Source of the DNA: Escherichia phage 216Ecol046PP
Direction: 5' to 3' (one strand)
Sequence record: PP328844.1
DNA: 41,264 nt
Positions 1-41,264 of this stretch are shown in pieces. The position numbers were made by a program, and so were the translations under genes. Positions within the stretch are counted from its first letter, which is position 1. Each line of letters starts with the position of its first letter. The notes under the pieces are model-generated. The model was not told the DNA's origin. It was given only the letters and a program-made list of their open reading frames with translations, and did no database searches.

Positions 1-179
1 TCTCACAGTTCAAGAACCTCAAGTCTCCCCATAGGCCCTCTTTAAGTCCAGACCAAAGGCCCTACCCCAGTCTATCATAAGGTTAGACCGATGGTCAAGA
101 CTTCAGGTCAACGATAGGTCTAGGCTATGGCTTAGGGAAGAACGATAGGTGGTGACTATTGGTCTGTCTTTGAGTCTCT
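1..179 (+). repeat. Terminal repeat copy 1 of 4 (179 bp, begins TCTCACAG as in T7)
   Basis: Read as identical to 501..679, 40586..40764 and 41086..41264 by direct comparison. Confidence 0.9.
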
Positions 180-401
180 GCAGATGACAATAAGGTAGTA
201 AGGTCGCTGAGGGCTTCCACTTCAGCAGGTCGGAAAGGTCCTAAAACCTAACGAGAGTCTGACCAGCTCGCCAAGTCTGCCACTGAGGTGGATAACCAGA
301 GGAGGCAACGTGTCGCCCACTGAGGGGCTACAGCTCACAGTTTAGGTTAACAGGCTAAACAAATGCTTGACAAGATGTAACGATAAGATGTAATATTTAC
401 C
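180..401 (+). repeat. Displaced duplicate of 1180..1401 (early promoter region) joined directly to a terminal repeat copy
   Basis: Read as identical to 1180..1401; junctions at 179/180 and 401/402. Confidence 0.85.
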
Positions 402-500
402 TGGTCTATCCTAGTGTCTCCTGACCTACGGTCCTTGACCTACAGTGGCTGTGGCCTACAGTAGTGACGATGAGTTTTGGACCAAAAGTTTGAGACCACA
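402..500 (+). repeat. Copy of genome right-end unique sequence (matches 40487..40585), forming a concatemer-type junction with the terminal repeat at 501
   Basis: Identity to the sequence immediately preceding the right terminal repeat. Confidence 0.85.
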
Positions 501-679
501 TCTCACAGTTCAAGAACCTCAAGTCTCCCCATAGGCCCTCTTTAAGTCCAGACCAAAGGCCCTACCCCAGTCTATCATAAGGTTAGACCGATGGTCAAGA
601 CTTCAGGTCAACGATAGGTCTAGGCTATGGCTTAGGGAAGAACGATAGGTGGTGACTATTGGTCTGTCTTTGAGTCTCT
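501..679 (+). repeat. Left terminal repeat of the genome unit
   Basis: 179-bp direct repeat; followed by left-end repeat arrays and early promoters as in T7. Confidence 0.9.
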
Positions 680-700
680 ATCTGTATCAGACCTTGAGTC

Positions 701-758
701 ACTACCTACAGTCTAACTACCTACAGTCTAACTACCTACAGTCTAACTACCTACAGTC
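701..758 (+). repeat. Tandem array of a 15-bp unit ACTACCTACAGTCTA (about 3.9 copies)
   Basis: Seen directly; positionally analogous to the short left-end repeat arrays of T7. Confidence 0.85.
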
Positions 759-1040
759 ATCGACCATCGGTAATGCTGCTACCTACAGTCTAAACCTACA
801 GTTAATAGACACAATGGCTATAGACTTAAGGTCTAAGACATGTTAGTCAAAGACTATATCCTCTTACACCATGGGGCCGACGATAGCTTAATCAATATTA
901 TCGACCATCGGTAATGCTGCTACCTACAGTCTAAACCTACAGTTAATAGACACAATGGCTATAGACTTAAGGTCTAAGACATGTTAGTCAAAGACTATAT
1001 CCTCTTACACCATGGGGCCGACGATAGCTTAATCAATATT
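759..1040 (+). repeat. Perfect tandem duplication of a 141-bp unit (759..899 and 900..1040)
   Basis: Two adjacent copies read as identical. Confidence 0.85.
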
Positions 1041-1055
1041 ATTTCAAATTACCTA

Positions 1056-1086
1056 TTGACTATAGGTCCAGACTATGGCCTAATAG
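1056..1086 (+). promoter_or_regulatory. Possible host sigma70 early promoter (TTGACT, then a weak -10)
   Basis: TTGACT at 1056..1061 followed by CTATAGG as in the T7 A1 context; -10 element is weak. Confidence 0.3.
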
Positions 1087-1366
1087 CTTCCGTCAACACG
1101 ACACGGCAACAACCGGATAGTGAAGACGCCGGTGTCATCCCGGTTAAGTAGACAGCCTGATAAGTCATACGAACAACAGGCAGATGACAATAAGGTAGTA
1201 AGGTCGCTGAGGGCTTCCACTTCAGCAGGTCGGAAAGGTCCTAAAACCTAACGAGAGTCTGACCAGCTCGCCAAGTCTGCCACTGAGGTGGATAACCAGA
1301 GGAGGCAACGTGTCGCCCACTGAGGGGCTACAGCTCACAGTTTAGGTTAACAGGCTAAACAAATGC

Positions 1367-1396
1367 TTGACAAGATGTAACGATAAGATGTAATAT
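1367..1396 (+). promoter_or_regulatory. Host sigma70 early promoter (TTGACA, 18-nt spacer, TAATAT)
   Basis: Near-consensus -35 and -10 hexamers upstream of the early genes; a second copy sits in the duplicate at 367..396. Confidence 0.6.
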
Positions 1397-1510
1397 TTAC
1401 CACATCGAAACAACGGTGATGACCAACACTGAAATGGTCTACCTGAAGTCCTCTGACTGAAGGGAATGCTCTTTAACAATCTGGATAAACTCTTAATGTG
1501 CGCCGATAGC

Positions 1511-7972: not shown

Positions 7973-8233
7973 ATGTCTAAGAACTTAATGTTCAACCGTT
8001 ATTCAAATACCTTCCACCTGTCCAACAACCCGTTCGCTTGCATTAAGCGCAACGAGAAGCTGGGCTACTTCGGGAAGGCCGTTAAGCTGTCACCTACAGT
8101 CTTCGCTCTGATTACTCCTGGAAAAGCTGAAGAGGCTCGCCAAAAGAGTGAGACCAACGTACATGTGGTCTACACCAAGTGGCCTCGCGTTCGTCTGTTT
8201 GTTGAGTTCGTGAAGGAGGTGATCAATGGTTAA
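7973..8233 (+). CDS. gp1.6-like hypothetical protein (86 aa)
   Basis: ORF track; position between ligase and gp1.7. Confidence 0.5.
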   Translation: MSKNLMFNRYSNTFHLSNNPFACIKRNEKLGYFGKAVKLSPTVFALITPGKAEEARQKSETNVHVVYTKWPRVRLFVEFVKEVING

Positions 8234-8666
8234 GGTGGGGGATACAGTTGCATATGTTGGACCAGTTGAAGCCTACATGGGACGCTACTGTGGCAAGGTG
8301 ATAGTGGTTAAGAATGAGCATGTAGCTGTTGTTAAGTGGCCCGGTTTATCTGAACCACGCAGTCACTCCATTAGCTCCTTAAGTATTACCAATCAGGCTC
8401 AGTCCGAGCCGACAACCATAGGTCAGGGAGATAGCGTCCGTAAGCCGTCGTACTATCAGGTATTTGACGGAGTGGAGTCCATTGAGATTATCGCTCGGTC
8501 CATGACTGTCAGCGAGTTCCGTGGGTTCTGCATGGGTAACGTCCTGAAGTATCGACTCCGAGCTGGTAAGAAGTCCGAGCTGGCTACTATGGAGAAGGAC
8601 CTAAACAAAGCAGCCTTCTACCAGGAGCTGTTCGACCTGCATAAAGGTAAGTGTTATGACGCGTGA
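8226..8666 (+). CDS. 1.7: gp1.7-like nucleotide kinase (146 aa)
   Basis: C-terminal half matches T7 gp1.7 (KPS.Y..FD..E.IE.IARSMTV..F.G.C.GN.LKYRLRAGKKSELA..EKDL.KA.FY.ELF..HK.KCY). Confidence 0.8.
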   Translation: MVKVGDTVAYVGPVEAYMGRYCGKVIVVKNEHVAVVKWPGLSEPRSHSISSLSITNQAQSEPTTIGQGDSVRKPSYYQVFDGVESIEIIARSMTVSEFRGFCMGNVLKYRLRAGKKSELATMEKDLNKAAFYQELFDLHKGKCYDA

Positions 8667-8883
8667 AGAACTTAAAGCTGTAGGGGTGAAGCGTAGAGCG
8701 CTCAGTTTTTACCGAGCATACAAGGCGCTACGTAAGGGTATGTTAGCGTTCTCATTAGGACACAGTGAGTATTGTGACTATGACCTCCTACCGTTTGCTT
8801 ATATGAAGACTCCTAGTATGATTATTAGGGTAGAGGAGTATGACCATTCTGACGACTGTGTAATGGTGAACCGATATGCTTAA
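8656..8883 (+). CDS. gp1.8-like hypothetical protein (75 aa)
   Basis: ORF track; position only. Confidence 0.45.
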   Translation: MTREELKAVGVKRRALSFYRAYKALRKGMLAFSLGHSEYCDYDLLPFAYMKTPSMIIRVEEYDHSDDCVMVNRYA

Positions 8884-8970: not shown

Positions 8971-9129
8971 ATGACTGACGTAGAAAAGAAATACATCGTG
9001 GAGCTTGAGGGTCGCGTTCAGTCATTCGAGGTTCCGGTGTACGCAAAGTCTCTTGAAGAGGCTACCCTGAAGTCCCAAGAGTATGAGGACGCTGGGTTTG
9101 TGGTCGGACGGATTCGTCCTGAGACCTAA
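8971..9129 (+). CDS. 2: gp2-like inhibitor of host RNA polymerase
   Basis: [15 protein letters not shown] and GFVVGRIRP resemble T7 gp2; start could instead be the in-frame ATG at 8953. Confidence 0.75.
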
Positions 9130-9146
9130 ACTATCACTGTAGGACA
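9127..9146 (+). promoter_or_regulatory. Phage RNAP promoter (variant CACTGTAGG)
   Basis: CTAAACTATCACTGTAGGAC. Confidence 0.65.
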
Positions 9147-9186: not shown

Positions 9187-9879
9187 ATGGCTAAAGAGCA
9201 ACTGAAGACTTTCACCACTCCGGTAGCTGGTATCGTTGAGCCTTACGCATGGCTGAACAAAGCAGACACCAAGTTTAATGAGCGTGGTGAGCATAAGGTT
9301 AACCTGACTTTCAGTCTGGATGACCCGAAGGTCCGTAAGATGATTGATGTCTTACAGAAGATTCACGACGATGCGTATGCGAAAGCACTCGCAGACCACG
9401 AGAAGAACCCACCTCAGGTTCAGCGTGGCAAGAAGCCTATCGAGCCGCGCGAAGGCGATATGCCGTGGATTGAGAATGGGGACGGTACTGTTACCCTGAA
9501 GTTTAAATGCTTTGCGTCTTACCTGAAAGACGGCAAGTCAGAGCCTATCGTATTACGGTTCTACGACACTGATGCTAAGTTAATCCGTGACGTCCCGAAT
9601 ATTGGCGCTGGCTCCAAACTGAAGGTCAAGTTCAAAGTCCTGCCGTTCAAGTGGAACGCTGCGACTGGTGCAAGCGTTAAGCTCCAGCTTGAGTCCTGCC
9701 TTCTGGTAGAACTGAAGGAGTGGAAAGGTGATGGTGGCGATGGTGGCTGGGGTGATGATGAAGACCTCGGTACTGGTTACAAAGCGTCAACTGATGGTGA
9801 CTTCGGGTCTGATGACTTCGGTGACGATGGTTCCGAAGGTGGTGATGACTCTGGCTCTGGTGGCGATTACGACTTCTAA
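9187..9879 (+). CDS. 2.5: Single-stranded DNA-binding protein (gp2.5 homologue) with acidic C-terminal tail
   Basis: Similarity to T7 gp2.5, including the C-terminal acidic tail ending DF. Confidence 0.92.
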   Translation: MAKEQLKTFTTPVAGIVEPYAWLNKADTKFNERGEHKVNLTFSLDDPKVRKMIDVLQKIHDDAYAKALADHEKNPPQVQRGKKPIEPREGDMPWIENGDGTVTLKFKCFASYLKDGKSEPIVLRFYDTDAKLIRDVPNIGAGSKLKVKFKVLPFKWNAATGASVKLQLESCLLVELKEWKGDGGDGGWGDDEDLGTGYKASTDGDFGSDDFGDDGSEGGDDSGSGGDYDF

Positions 9880-10334
9880 TGGCCCAATGGTCTGCAAAAC
9901 GGGGGCACTCTGTGGGTGCCTACCGCTCTGGACTTGAAGCCAAGAACCAGCAGTGGCTGGAACAGAACGGCGTCAAAGCGGAGTACGAAAGCCATTATAT
10001 CAACTATGTGATTCCGGCTTCCGACCACAAGTACACACCAGACTTTATCCTTCCAAACGGTATCATCGTGGAGACCAAAGGTATCTTCGATAGTGATGAC
10101 CGTAAGAAGCACCTTCTGGTACGAGAACAGCACCCAGAGTTAGACATCCGGTTCGTGTTCTCAAGTTCACGCTCAAAGCTATACAAAGGGTCCCCGACCA
10201 CGTATGGGGCATGGTGCGAAAAGAACGGCTTTAAGTTTGCCGACAAGTTTATCCCGGTTGAGTGGCTGCGAGAGGCAACTGTACGTCTGCCTTCCGGTAT
10301 ACTCATCCCCAAGAAGAAAGGAGCTACGAAATGA
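9879..10334 (+). CDS. 3: Endonuclease I (Holliday junction resolvase, gp3 homologue)
   Basis: YTPDF.LPNGI.VETKG...DDRKKHLL.REQHPELDIR.VFSSSR.KLYKGSPT.YG..CEK.G.KFADK. Confidence 0.92.
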   Translation: MAQWSAKRGHSVGAYRSGLEAKNQQWLEQNGVKAEYESHYINYVIPASDHKYTPDFILPNGIIVETKGIFDSDDRKKHLLVREQHPELDIRFVFSSSRSKLYKGSPTTYGAWCEKNGFKFADKFIPVEWLREATVRLPSGILIPKKKGATK

Positions 10335-10786
10335 CTACCTGTAAAGACCTTGAAGTTGGAACACGTTACAGATTCTCAAAGAACACCCTGCTGAATAACC
10401 CCCAATTCACTGATGCTGTTTTCGAAAAGCGAGAAGACCATAGCGTAATTGTGGAGAAGGGATGGCATCCTGAGGATTACATCGGTGAGACTACCAGCTG
10501 GAATGGTCACGAGACCTACAGTGTAGAAGTTGTTGAACAGCCTCAAGTCCTGCCAGCTTCGAGCGTACCTCCTGTGACTGTGAAGCGTGAAGTCCTGACA
10601 ATCGACAAGATTGGTGTAGGCCAGACGTTCATCGTCCATGGAAAGCCTGAAGAAGTTTACGTGAAGATTAGCAACTCACACGTCTTCAACCATAAGCGTC
10701 TCCAGATGCACACAACGGACGCACAACGCTTCACCCAGCACCTGAATCTAGTGGTCGTAGAATTGGTGGTGTACAATGGTAAGTAA
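10331..10786 (+). CDS. Hypothetical protein (151 aa) between endonuclease I and lysozyme
   Basis: ATG at 10331 with RBS AAGAAAGGAG; T7 has no gene at this position. Confidence 0.55.
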   Translation: MTTCKDLEVGTRYRFSKNTLLNNPQFTDAVFEKREDHSVIVEKGWHPEDYIGETTSWNGHETYSVEVVEQPQVLPASSVPPVTVKREVLTIDKIGVGQTFIVHGKPEEVYVKISNSHVFNHKRLQMHTTDAQRFTQHLNLVVVELVVYNGK

Positions 10787-11234
10787 GGTACAGTTCAACC
10801 CACGGTCCCGGACTGACGCTATCTTCGTTCACTGTTCGGCTACCAAGCCAGAGATGGACATCGGGGTAGAGACCATCCGTATGTGGCACAAGCAGCAAGG
10901 CTGGCTGGACGTAGGCTACCACTTTATCATCAAGCGCGATGGTACTGTGGAAGAGGGTCGCCCGGTAAACGTCGTAGGGTCACACGTTAAGGACTGGAAC
11001 TCACGGTCTGTAGGCGTCTGCCTTGTAGGTGGAATTGACGCTAAGGGCAAGTTTGAAGCTAACTTCACTCCTGACCAGATGAACTCCCTACGCAACAAGC
11101 TGGCTGACCTGAAGTCCCTGTATCCTCAGGCAGAAATCAAAGCACATCATGATGTAGCACCAAAGGCGTGTCCAAGTTTCGACTTACAGCGCTGGCTGTC
11201 TACTAATGAGCTGGTCACTTCCGACCACGGTTAA
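10776..11234 (+). CDS. 3.5: N-acetylmuramoyl-L-alanine amidase / T7-lysozyme homologue (gp3.5)
   Basis: DAIFVHCSATKP...GW.DVGYHFIIKRDGTVE.GR...VGSH..GYN..S.GVCLVGGID...HH..APKACPSFDL. Confidence 0.93.
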   Translation: MVSKVQFNPRSRTDAIFVHCSATKPEMDIGVETIRMWHKQQGWLDVGYHFIIKRDGTVEEGRPVNVVGSHVKDWNSRSVGVCLVGGIDAKGKFEANFTPDQMNSLRNKLADLKSLYPQAEIKAHHDVAPKACPSFDLQRWLSTNELVTSDHG

Positions 11235-11258: not shown

Positions 11259-11474
11259 ATGATTAAACTTATCGAATTTCTAGGTCGTCTGGTGGTGCGT
11301 GGTTATCGTCGTGCTGCGGTACTGGAACGAAAGGTAGAAAAGAAGACTGCTGATGGCGCGGCTGATGCTGCTGCTCTGGCTGACAAGCTGACCATCGCGT
11401 CACTGGAAGCTGGCATGAAGGCTCGTCAGGCTGATACCAAAGCTGACCAGTTGGCTCAGTTCTTCAAAGACTAA
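11259..11474 (+). CDS. Hypothetical protein (71 aa), Ala-rich
   Basis: ORF track; position only. Confidence 0.45.
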   Translation: MIKLIEFLGRLVVRGYRRAAVLERKVEKKTADGAADAAALADKLTIASLEAGMKARQADTKADQLAQFFKD

Positions 11475-11491
11475 ACTATCACCTTAGGGAT
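11472..11491 (+). promoter_or_regulatory. Phage RNAP promoter (divergent variant ACCTTAGGGA)
   Basis: CTAAACTATCACCTTAGGGA; weaker match. Confidence 0.5.
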
Positions 11492-11542
11492 GGGACCATG
11501 AGTCCTGTCCCTTTGTTCGCATTTGTGACTAAGGAGTGACCG

Positions 11543-11722
11543 ATGGTTACAGTTATTCTAGTTCTAACGCTTATCAGTGGTAGTGGGCAAACTATCAGCC
11601 AAGTACCTATAACAGCGCCAACATTACAGGACGCATTCACAATATGTGACCAGTCCGGCTCAAAGTGGGCCGATAAGTTTGGCGATGTCTCAAACGTTGC
11701 AGCAGGGTATGAGTGTATTTAA
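11543..11722 (+). CDS. Hypothetical small protein (59 aa) with signal-peptide-like N-terminus
   Basis: RBS TAAGGAGTGACC; MVTVILVLTLISGSG N-terminus. Confidence 0.35.
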   Translation: MVTVILVLTLISGSGQTISQVPITAPTLQDAFTICDQSGSKWADKFGDVSNVAAGYECI

Positions 11723-11732
11723 GGAGTGACCA

Positions 11733-13818
<2,086 letters not shown>

Positions 13819-40423: not shown

Positions 40424-40585
40424 TACTGTAGTCAAGGACTTTAGGTAACACCTTAAGAGAAGCTCACTTAGGGTCATCCTACTTATTGGTCTATCCTAGT
40501 GTCTCCTGACCTACGGTCCTTGACCTACAGTGGCTGTGGCCTACAGTAGTGACGATGAGTTTTGGACCAAAAGTTTGAGACCACA

Positions 40586-40764
40586 TCTCACAGTTCAAGA
40601 ACCTCAAGTCTCCCCATAGGCCCTCTTTAAGTCCAGACCAAAGGCCCTACCCCAGTCTATCATAAGGTTAGACCGATGGTCAAGACTTCAGGTCAACGAT
40701 AGGTCTAGGCTATGGCTTAGGGAAGAACGATAGGTGGTGACTATTGGTCTGTCTTTGAGTCTCT
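40586..40764 (+). repeat. Right terminal repeat of the genome unit
   Basis: Identical to 501..679. Confidence 0.9.
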
Positions 40765-41085
40765 ATCTGTATCAGACCTTGAGTCACTACCTACAGTCTA
40801 ACTACCTACAGTCTAACTACCTACAGTCTAACTACCTACAGTCATCGACCATCGGTAATGCTGCTACCTACAGTCTAAACCTACAGTTAATAGACACAAT
40901 GGCTATAGACTTAAGGTCTAAGACATGTTAGTCAAAGACTATATCCTCTTACACCATGGGGCCGACGATAGCTTAATCAATATTATCGACCATCGGTAAT
41001 GCTGCTACCTACAGTCTAAACCTACAGTTAATAGACACAATGGCTATAGACTTAAGGTCTAAGACATGTTAGTCAAAGACTATAT
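40765..41085 (+). repeat. Copy of left-end unique sequence 680..1000 following the right terminal repeat (concatemer-type continuation)
   Basis: Identity to 680..1000 including the 15-bp array and part of the 141-bp duplication. Confidence 0.85.
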
Positions 41086-41264
41086 TCTCACAGTTCAAGA
41101 ACCTCAAGTCTCCCCATAGGCCCTCTTTAAGTCCAGACCAAAGGCCCTACCCCAGTCTATCATAAGGTTAGACCGATGGTCAAGACTTCAGGTCAACGAT
41201 AGGTCTAGGCTATGGCTTAGGGAAGAACGATAGGTGGTGACTATTGGTCTGTCTTTGAGTCTCT
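41086..41264 (+). repeat. Fourth terminal repeat copy, joined to an internal point of the left-end region
   Basis: Identical to the terminal repeat; junction at 41085/41086 breaks collinearity with 1001 onward. Confidence 0.85.

Follow-up and report, generated by a model that had tools for sequence, protein, structure and literature searches.

Gene 3.2 and Its Surroundings

The window (the whole stretch of DNA analyzed, 41,264 nucleotides from Escherichia phage 216Ecol046PP, record PP328844.1) belongs to a K1F-like phage of the genus Kayfunavirus. Between its endonuclease I and amidase genes lies an open reading frame that is named gene 3.2 in relatives. The features of this interval are as follows:

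9118..9143, + strand: phi2.5-like promoter of the phage RNA polymerase, a copy of the 9-copy repeat family CTAAACTATCACTATAGG, heading the unit 2.5-3-3.2-3.5-3.7
9879..10334, + strand: gene 3, endonuclease I, the upstream neighbor (Pfam PF05367, Phage_endo_I, E 9e-82)
10318..10323, + strand: Shine-Dalgarno sequence AAGGAG of gene 3.2, 7 nt 5' of the ATG, read from the sequence
10331..10786, + strand: coding sequence of gene 3.2, 456 nt, 151 aa, an allele of N-type A
10776..11234, + strand: gene 3.5, N-acetylmuramoyl-L-alanine amidase, the downstream neighbor (Pfam PF01510, Amidase_2, E 5e-16)

The initial annotation described an extra 151-aa reading frame at 10331-10786, between endonuclease I and lysozyme, with a good ribosome binding site and coupled to both neighbors, and all of this is confirmed by the sequence. 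The ATG occupies 10331-10333 and the TAA stop 10784-10786. The TGA stop of gene 3 overlaps the start codon as ATGA (10331-10334), and the amidase gene, whose ATG is at 10776, shares its first 11 nt with the end of gene 3.2. In phage Pipis a ribosome binding site is annotated at the place equivalent to the AAGGAG. The statement that gene 3.5 directly follows gene 3 in T7 is also borne out: gene 3 (10257-10706) abuts gene 3.5 (10706-11161) with no gene between them, and T3 has the same arrangement. Because the promoter copy at 9118-9143 is followed only by that at 11466-11490, genes 2.5, 3, 3.2, 3.5, and 3.7 form one transcription unit. Within the reading frame of gene 3.2 a scan detected neither a phage promoter nor a terminator-like site, and neither a tRNA nor an Rfam family. 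No Shine-Dalgarno-like sequence lies 5' of the GTG codons V82 and V84, where an internal start would give the C-terminal domain alone.

Several insertions and annotations in the wider region are of separate note. Between gene 3.7 and the primase/helicase gene, 11543-12098 holds a 59-aa reading frame (PHROG 6794, unknown function) and a T7 gp3.8-like HNH endonuclease (11733-12098, PHROG 4578, E 3e-53). The region of the former (11500-11700) is common only to Pipis (L001), L005 and, in part, L009 and L014, that of the latter (11700-12100) only to L009 and L014, and K1F has neither gene; together they look like a homing-endonuclease insertion. A Shine-Dalgarno-plus-start element, TAAGGAGTGACC[GA]ATGG, occurs at 11530 and again at 11720. 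In Salmonella phage CHRF_30111 (L022) a "tRNA-OTHER" is annotated at 2410-2485, between gene 3.7 and the primase gene; ARAGORN reports no tRNA in the whole window. Escherichia phage PH1061 (L023) carries an HNH endonuclease gene (1946-2317) between gene 3.2 and the amidase gene, with the same 11-nt overlap, so the junction of genes 3.2 and 3.5 can take insertions too. In Providencia phage PSTCR2 (L004, 1746-2778) the gp3.2-like gene is followed by two small reading frames and then by an endolysin gene. One of them (117 aa) has no PHROG match and the other (79 aa) weakly resembles the Kayfunavirus gp3.7 family (PHROG 1950); gp3.2 and gp3.7-like genes thus co-occur in both phage groups.

The two ends of the window (1-1401 and 40487-41264) are repeated, with 1-179 identical to 501-679, 40586-40764, and 41086-41264, segment 180-401 identical to 1180-1401, and a 141-bp unit present twice at 759-1042. 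The unit length comes to 40,085 bp. The window opens with TCTCACAGT, which we take to be the start of the T7-group terminal repeat. The repeats look like a terminal repeat or concatemer junction that was assembled more than once, and are probably an assembly artifact rather than biology. Arrays of a 15-bp unit, ACTACCTACAGTCTA, adjoin the terminal repeat at 686-773 and 40771-40858, and related CTACCTACAGTCT motifs occur at 8084 and 24126.

A Core Gene of Kayfunavirus

The reading frame shares 98% nucleotide identity with that of Escherichia phages Vec13, Pipis, and PhiNW-B1, and its protein is 97-99% identical to the alleles of these three phages and of BDX03P1. The homologue is annotated as "gp3.2" in K1F (AM084414) and EcoDS1 and as "3.01" in CR44b, and that of Cronobacter phage Dev2 is listed as gp3.2 in a table (PMC4925675); all remaining homologues are annotated as "hypothetical protein." Two PHROG families of unknown function match, 16385 over residues 66-151 (E 2.3e-51) and 15211 over residues 82-151 (E 4.8e-40). 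Since the protein combines the PHROG profile, the slot overlapping genes 3 and 3.5, and the motif residues of the C-terminal domain, which define the family, the window's reading frame is an N-type A allele of the cataloged gp3.2 family.

A tblastn search with the protein matches 220 phage records, and a megablast search with the flanking genes 2.5 and 3 also returns 220, with a near-identical host breakdown. Gene 3.2 is therefore core to Kayfunavirus, present in essentially all of its genomes in the database, and not sporadic; the term "accessory," used in the initial annotation, does not fit a named gene of this distribution. It is also a real gene and not a chance reading frame, because homologues occupy the equivalent slot in the 220 phage records and the C-terminal half evolves with a dN/dS of 0.03-0.16. 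The family is very narrow: among 1.84 billion representative proteins searched exhaustively with HMMER, only 12 genuine clusters are recovered, all of them gp3.2 forms; the clusters from the first such search sit on phage-sized contigs. A thirteenth match (P0131), a eukaryote-like Cys-rich repeat protein aligned over 33 residues with E 7e-4, is taken as chance. A sister subfamily with about 35% identity over the C-terminal part is encoded 3' of endonuclease I in Providencia phages (e.g., PSTCR2).

One record deserves separate mention. In the K1F RefSeq entry NC_007456 (L002, derived from DQ111067, 1279-1749) a frameshift after "QMHTT" gives gp3.2 an unrelated tail, and in the independent K1F sequence AM084414 (L024, 9706-10179) the conserved C-terminus is intact; the RefSeq record probably contains a sequencing error here.

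No recognizable motif had been seen in the protein at first. This stands for Pfam, NCBIfam, PADLOC, and PDB sequence searches, which return no match with either the single protein or a 34-sequence profile, and is superseded by the two PHROG matches of unknown function. Against the PADLOC-DB defense profiles no family is reached at E values up to 10. Pfam Imm11 gives a best E of 0.037 among four members, and P0143 reaches 12 bits against a cut-off of 22.1 over 25 residues of the C-domain motif, which is noise. Membership of NlpC/P60 finds neither a Cys-bearing N-terminal helix nor an NLPC_P60 profile match. The literature on gp3.2, the PHROG identifiers, Kayfunavirus biology, and accessory-gene screens yielded no functional statement. 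Of the characterized families tested here, gp3.2 belongs to none. By the initial annotation, its view would have been refuted had the gene turned out to be a conserved T7-group gene of known function; the gene is conserved and absent from T7 and T3, and no function was found in annotations or literature.

Constant C-Terminal Domain and Exchangeable N-Terminal Cassette

An alignment of 40 homologues divides the protein into two parts. Residues 1-70 fall into mutually unalignable sequence types, and from P71 on, PQVLPASSVPPVTVKRE-VLTIDKIGVGQTFIVHGKPEEVYVKISNSHVFNHKRLQMHTTDAQRFTQHLNLVVVELVVYNGK is invariant or almost so. In the window the parts are:

10338..10540, + strand: N-terminal cassette of type A, aa 3-70, 203 nt; predicted SH3-like barrel, acidic (pI 4.8)
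10541..10591, + strand: Pro-rich linker PQVLPASSVPPVTVKRE, aa 71-87; invariant or near-invariant alignment columns, low pLDDT
10574..10783, + strand: constant C-terminal domain, aa 82-151; predicted SH3-like barrel, pI about 9.5
10670..10732, + strand: polar motif S114 N115 S116 H117 x F119 N120 ... Q125 M126 H127 T128 T129 ... R133 F134, invariant in Kayfunavirus and the Providencia-phage subfamily

The C-terminal domain is more than 90% identical among the forms that bear an N-terminal part, and it contains no conserved Cys. Across both subfamilies 16 residues are invariant (G97, F100, Y110, S114, N115, S116, H117, F119, N120, Q125, M126, H127, T128, T129, R133, and F134). In the N-less forms of 74-76 aa this domain is the entire protein. 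Such stand-alone domains occur in GW1, Dev2 (74 aa), and many Salmonella, Shigella, and Citrobacter phages, and about 125 of the 220 records match residues 82-151 only, which by subtraction implies a stand-alone protein of 74-76 aa. The existence of these forms means that the C-terminal domain is autonomous, able to work alone.

The N-terminal cassettes comprise at least six sequence-unrelated types; some genes carry two of them and over half carry none. The types are:

Type A (this window), starting MTTCKDLEVGTRYRF…: 26 phage records
Type B (K1F, EcoDS1, LM33_P1), starting M..K[YF][KR]L…GWP.GTIVT.C…: 56 phage records
Type C, starting MTQKAKGYKFPVTVTG…: 2 phage records
Type D/E, starting MTRKAIIVDL…: 10 or more phage records
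Sixth type, starting MSKTYRVLNT…: locus L013; P0126
Another N-type: P0129

In hhalign comparisons types A, B, C, and D/E are unrelated to one another and to the C-terminal domain, all probabilities being below 1%. Internal duplication, with N-domains that diverged from the C-domain or from one another, thus finds no support in hhalign, as all pairs stay below 1% except the two Providencia types with one another; an apparent hit came from type A N-domains inside the target alignment. Sharing of cassettes with gp1.7 or other genes of the window or K1F was likewise rejected (tblastn E 0.009 or worse, hhalign negative). Some proteins carry tandem N-domains: type B followed by a type-A-like domain in P0124, and a type-C-like followed by a type-A-like domain in P0119. 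The Providencia-phage subfamily shows the variable-N/constant-C pattern again, independently, with several N types joined to one unchanging C part. The N-types do not track host genus: type A is found in phages of E. coli, Klebsiella, Enterobacter, and Salmonella, and type B in phages of E. coli, Citrobacter, Providencia, Hafnia, and Pectobacterium. Several Kayfunavirus records (BDX03P1, PDP351P3, AN24P4, LM33P1, MT1B1P3, and PDP21P1) appear to figure in a published matrix of E. coli phage-host interactions.

The homologue of gene 1.7 (8226-8666) has a variable-N/conserved-C pattern as in gp3.2. Its C part (aa 59-146) is conserved and has matches among the PHROG nucleotide-kinase families. Over the first ~60 codons (MVKVGDTVAYVG…, especially 8200-8400) most relatives show no nucleotide similarity. 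By eye this N part looks KOW/SH3-like, and it is not detectably related to the gp3.2 cassettes. Between gene 1.7 and gene 2 lies a 75-aa reading frame (8656-8883) with no PHROG match, found at the nucleotide level only in L005 among 20 loci compared; it appears to be a strain-specific accessory gene.

At the nucleotide level, similarity is undetectable in most relatives over 10338-10540, and the C-domain region keeps 77-100% identity with relatives, a level comparable to that of the endonuclease I and amidase genes. A DNA or RNA element hidden in the C part was considered and rejected: its nucleotide conservation is no higher than that of the neighbors, and it shows no promoter, terminator or Rfam match. 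The breakpoints of the cassette are sharp and recurrent. On the left, homology stops at 10334-10337, where gene 3 ends and gene 3.2 begins. On the right, it returns at 10541-10544, the first linker codon, in most N-bearing loci with other cassette types, and at 10594 in the N-less forms. The linker PQVLPASSVPPVTVKRE is thus, by breakpoint mapping, the right-hand recombination joint of the cassette. At locus L008 a type B cassette lies between flanks 96-98% identical to those of the window, so exchange is recent and occurs between very close relatives.

Nei-Gojobori estimates place the C-terminal domain under strong purifying selection, with a dN/dS of 0.03-0.16 at dS up to 1.4, which resembles the SSB, endonuclease I, and amidase genes. 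The cassette has a dN/dS of about 0.1 between close type A alleles, and between type A subtypes its dN is 0.33-0.74 vs. 0.03-0.05 in the flanking genes. This pattern indicates that a functional protein is encoded and that each cassette is constrained, with turnover by replacement and fast divergence.

AlphaFold2 with the 40-sequence alignment models residues 1-70 of type A at a pLDDT of about 90. The C part was poorly modeled in this first run because the alignment lacks diversity there; with residues 69-151 and added Providencia sequences the pLDDT is 81 (core above 90), and the model has six strands plus a single short helix. Confidence is low for the hydrophobic tail at the C-terminus. Residues 114-134, which hold the polar motif, map to the β4-β5 hairpin and the short helix in the secondary structure of this model. 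Both modeled halves, the type A N-domain and the C-domain, are predicted SH3-like barrels. Candidate fold likenesses of these models include the SH3-like barrels of FeoA and the DtxR C-terminus as well as KOW, Tudor, uL2, and EF-P domain I; scores of this kind point to a generic fold rather than to homology. A Foldseek search of BFVD matches only family members and uncharacterized small phage proteins. In Kayfunavirus the C-domain has a basic pI of about 9.5-10, as against an acidic 4.8 for the type A cassette. The charge of the C-domain is not conserved, ranging from -3 to +6, with a pI of 6.3 in the Providencia C part.

Possible Roles and Relation to Known Systems

The reading preferred here, with a probability of roughly 0.35, is that gp3.2 may be a small non-catalytic binding protein of two modules that works as an adaptor or an inhibitor during host takeover or counter-defense. 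The initial annotation had put the protein forward as a candidate for a host-interaction or defense-related function. Here we infer that the protein binds rather than catalyzes, what any partner might be, and that host or defense is involved. Expression would be driven by the phi2.5-type promoter along with the class II (DNA-metabolism) genes, and translation would be coupled to that of endonuclease I and amidase. Its C-terminal barrel (aa 82-151) would be the family core and dock via the polar patch SNSHxFN…QMHTT…RF onto a partner that is the same across the hosts or phages of the group, possibly a conserved protein, a nucleic acid or another polar ligand. The N-terminal barrel (aa 3-70) would be an optional cassette on a Pro-rich tether, swapped by recombination, and could supply a second binding specificity that varies between strains.

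A binding protein is suggested by the combination of an autonomous, constrained barrel with swappable barrels on a Pro-rich tether and occasional double-N arrays, and the SH3-like barrel, if correctly predicted, is a fold typically used for binding, which would favor such a role. Nothing points to an enzyme, as there is no family match, the domains are of only ~70 aa, and the C-domain lacks a conserved Cys. The turnover of the N-cassettes argues for a variable counterpart on the host side, the pattern expected from an arms race, and a C-domain that stays constant across the genus points to an invariant target. Other observations weigh against this reading. The dense cluster of invariant Ser, Asn, His, Thr, Gln, and Arg residues would fit a small-ligand site, or even catalysis, as well. 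For an adaptor, it counts against the model that N-types are independent of host genus and that over half of the genomes have no N-domain. As for counter-defense, a genus-wide, constrained gene is unlike the usual patchy distribution of such genes and looks more like a core function.

A doubtful but possible reading makes gp3.2 an accessory factor for endonuclease I or for recombination and replication, in which the barrel would bind (branched) DNA or endonuclease I and so adjust or direct the resolution of junctions and the breakdown of host DNA. In its favor, PSTCR2 and PH1061 keep the ATGA coupling to gene 3 despite the lost adjacency to the amidase gene, although gene order is weak evidence in compact, collinear genomes. 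Moreover, T7 and T3 run the same endonuclease I without gp3.2, the basic charge is not conserved (Providencia C part, pI 6.3), and the turnover of the N-cassettes would be left without a reason.

It is unlikely that gp3.2 is a cassette-swapping hub for counter-defense and host takeover, with the barrel docked on endonuclease I or on a universal host enzyme (e.g., a nuclease or protease), and the N-barrels neutralizing or recruiting strain-specific factors. If this were true, the type of N-cassette would be a post-adsorption determinant of host range in K1F-like therapeutic phages. Decidedly improbable is a partnership with the gp3.5 amidase, in lysis or in the control of the phage RNA polymerase by lysozyme; the domain would then be an SH3b-like module for cell wall or peptide, or a degenerate NlpC/P60 β core with a His…His pair, and the missing Cys-bearing helix and profile match speak against it. 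Little more credence than an outside chance is given to a C-domain that binds a small molecule (e.g., an immune signaling nucleotide) in a polar pocket, probably as an oligomer, with the N-domains as unrelated add-ons. Such a role would agree with ten invariant polar residues within 20 positions of the β4-β5 hairpin and the following helix, with the very small size and autonomy of the domain, and with the low-confidence hydrophobic C-terminal tail, which could mediate oligomerization. Finally, a reading frame that acts mainly as a translated leader, passing ribosomes from gene 3 to gene 3.5 with little protein function, would explain the start/stop overlaps at both ends and the last codons (YNGK*), which are constrained by the Shine-Dalgarno sequence and start of the amidase gene, but it is effectively refuted by the low dN/dS over 70 codons at dS up to 1.4 and by residues invariant across two subfamilies of only about 35% identity. 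Against it, too, T7 and T3 manage the coupling of genes 3 and 3.5 without any leader between them.

Many database entries already contain the gp3.2 sequence. The novelty lies in the constant-plus-cassette architecture and its mapped breakpoints, of which no description was found in the searchable literature. K1F-like phages find application, and are engineered, against E. coli K1, uropathogenic E. coli, Salmonella Typhi, and Enterobacter, and gene 3.2 is among the few genus-wide genes that are absent from T7 and have no assigned function. The cassette architecture turns a "hypothetical protein" into an experimentally tractable target. If the cassette matters, it would form a second layer of specificity beside the tailspike, readable directly from sequence; if it does not, gp3.2 would be a conserved small protein of the DNA-metabolism block.

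The closest known system is gp3.2 of other K1F-like phages (K1F, EcoDS1, Dev2, CR44b), which shares the slot between genes 3 and 3.5, the linker, and the C-domain. K1F and EcoDS1 differ from the window by an unrelated type B cassette, and Dev2 and GW1 by the lack of any cassette (74 aa). The polyvalent proteins of phages and conjugative elements, attributed to Iyer et al. in 2017, are reportedly very large and carry recognizable enzymatic anti-defense domains. Like them, gp3.2 joins small independent modules on one polypeptide encoded in a conflict-prone region, as in the double-N proteins P0119 and P0124; unlike them, it has no recognizable enzymatic anti-defense domain. Phage receptor-binding proteins combine a constant anchor with a horizontally exchanged domain. 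Whereas in gp3.2 the constant part is C-terminal, the protein has only ~150 aa, the gene is among the middle genes, and nothing suggests a location in the virion, it shares with the modular receptor-binding proteins a conserved module, a short joint that serves as the recombination point, and unrelated, swappable modules in near-identical backbones.
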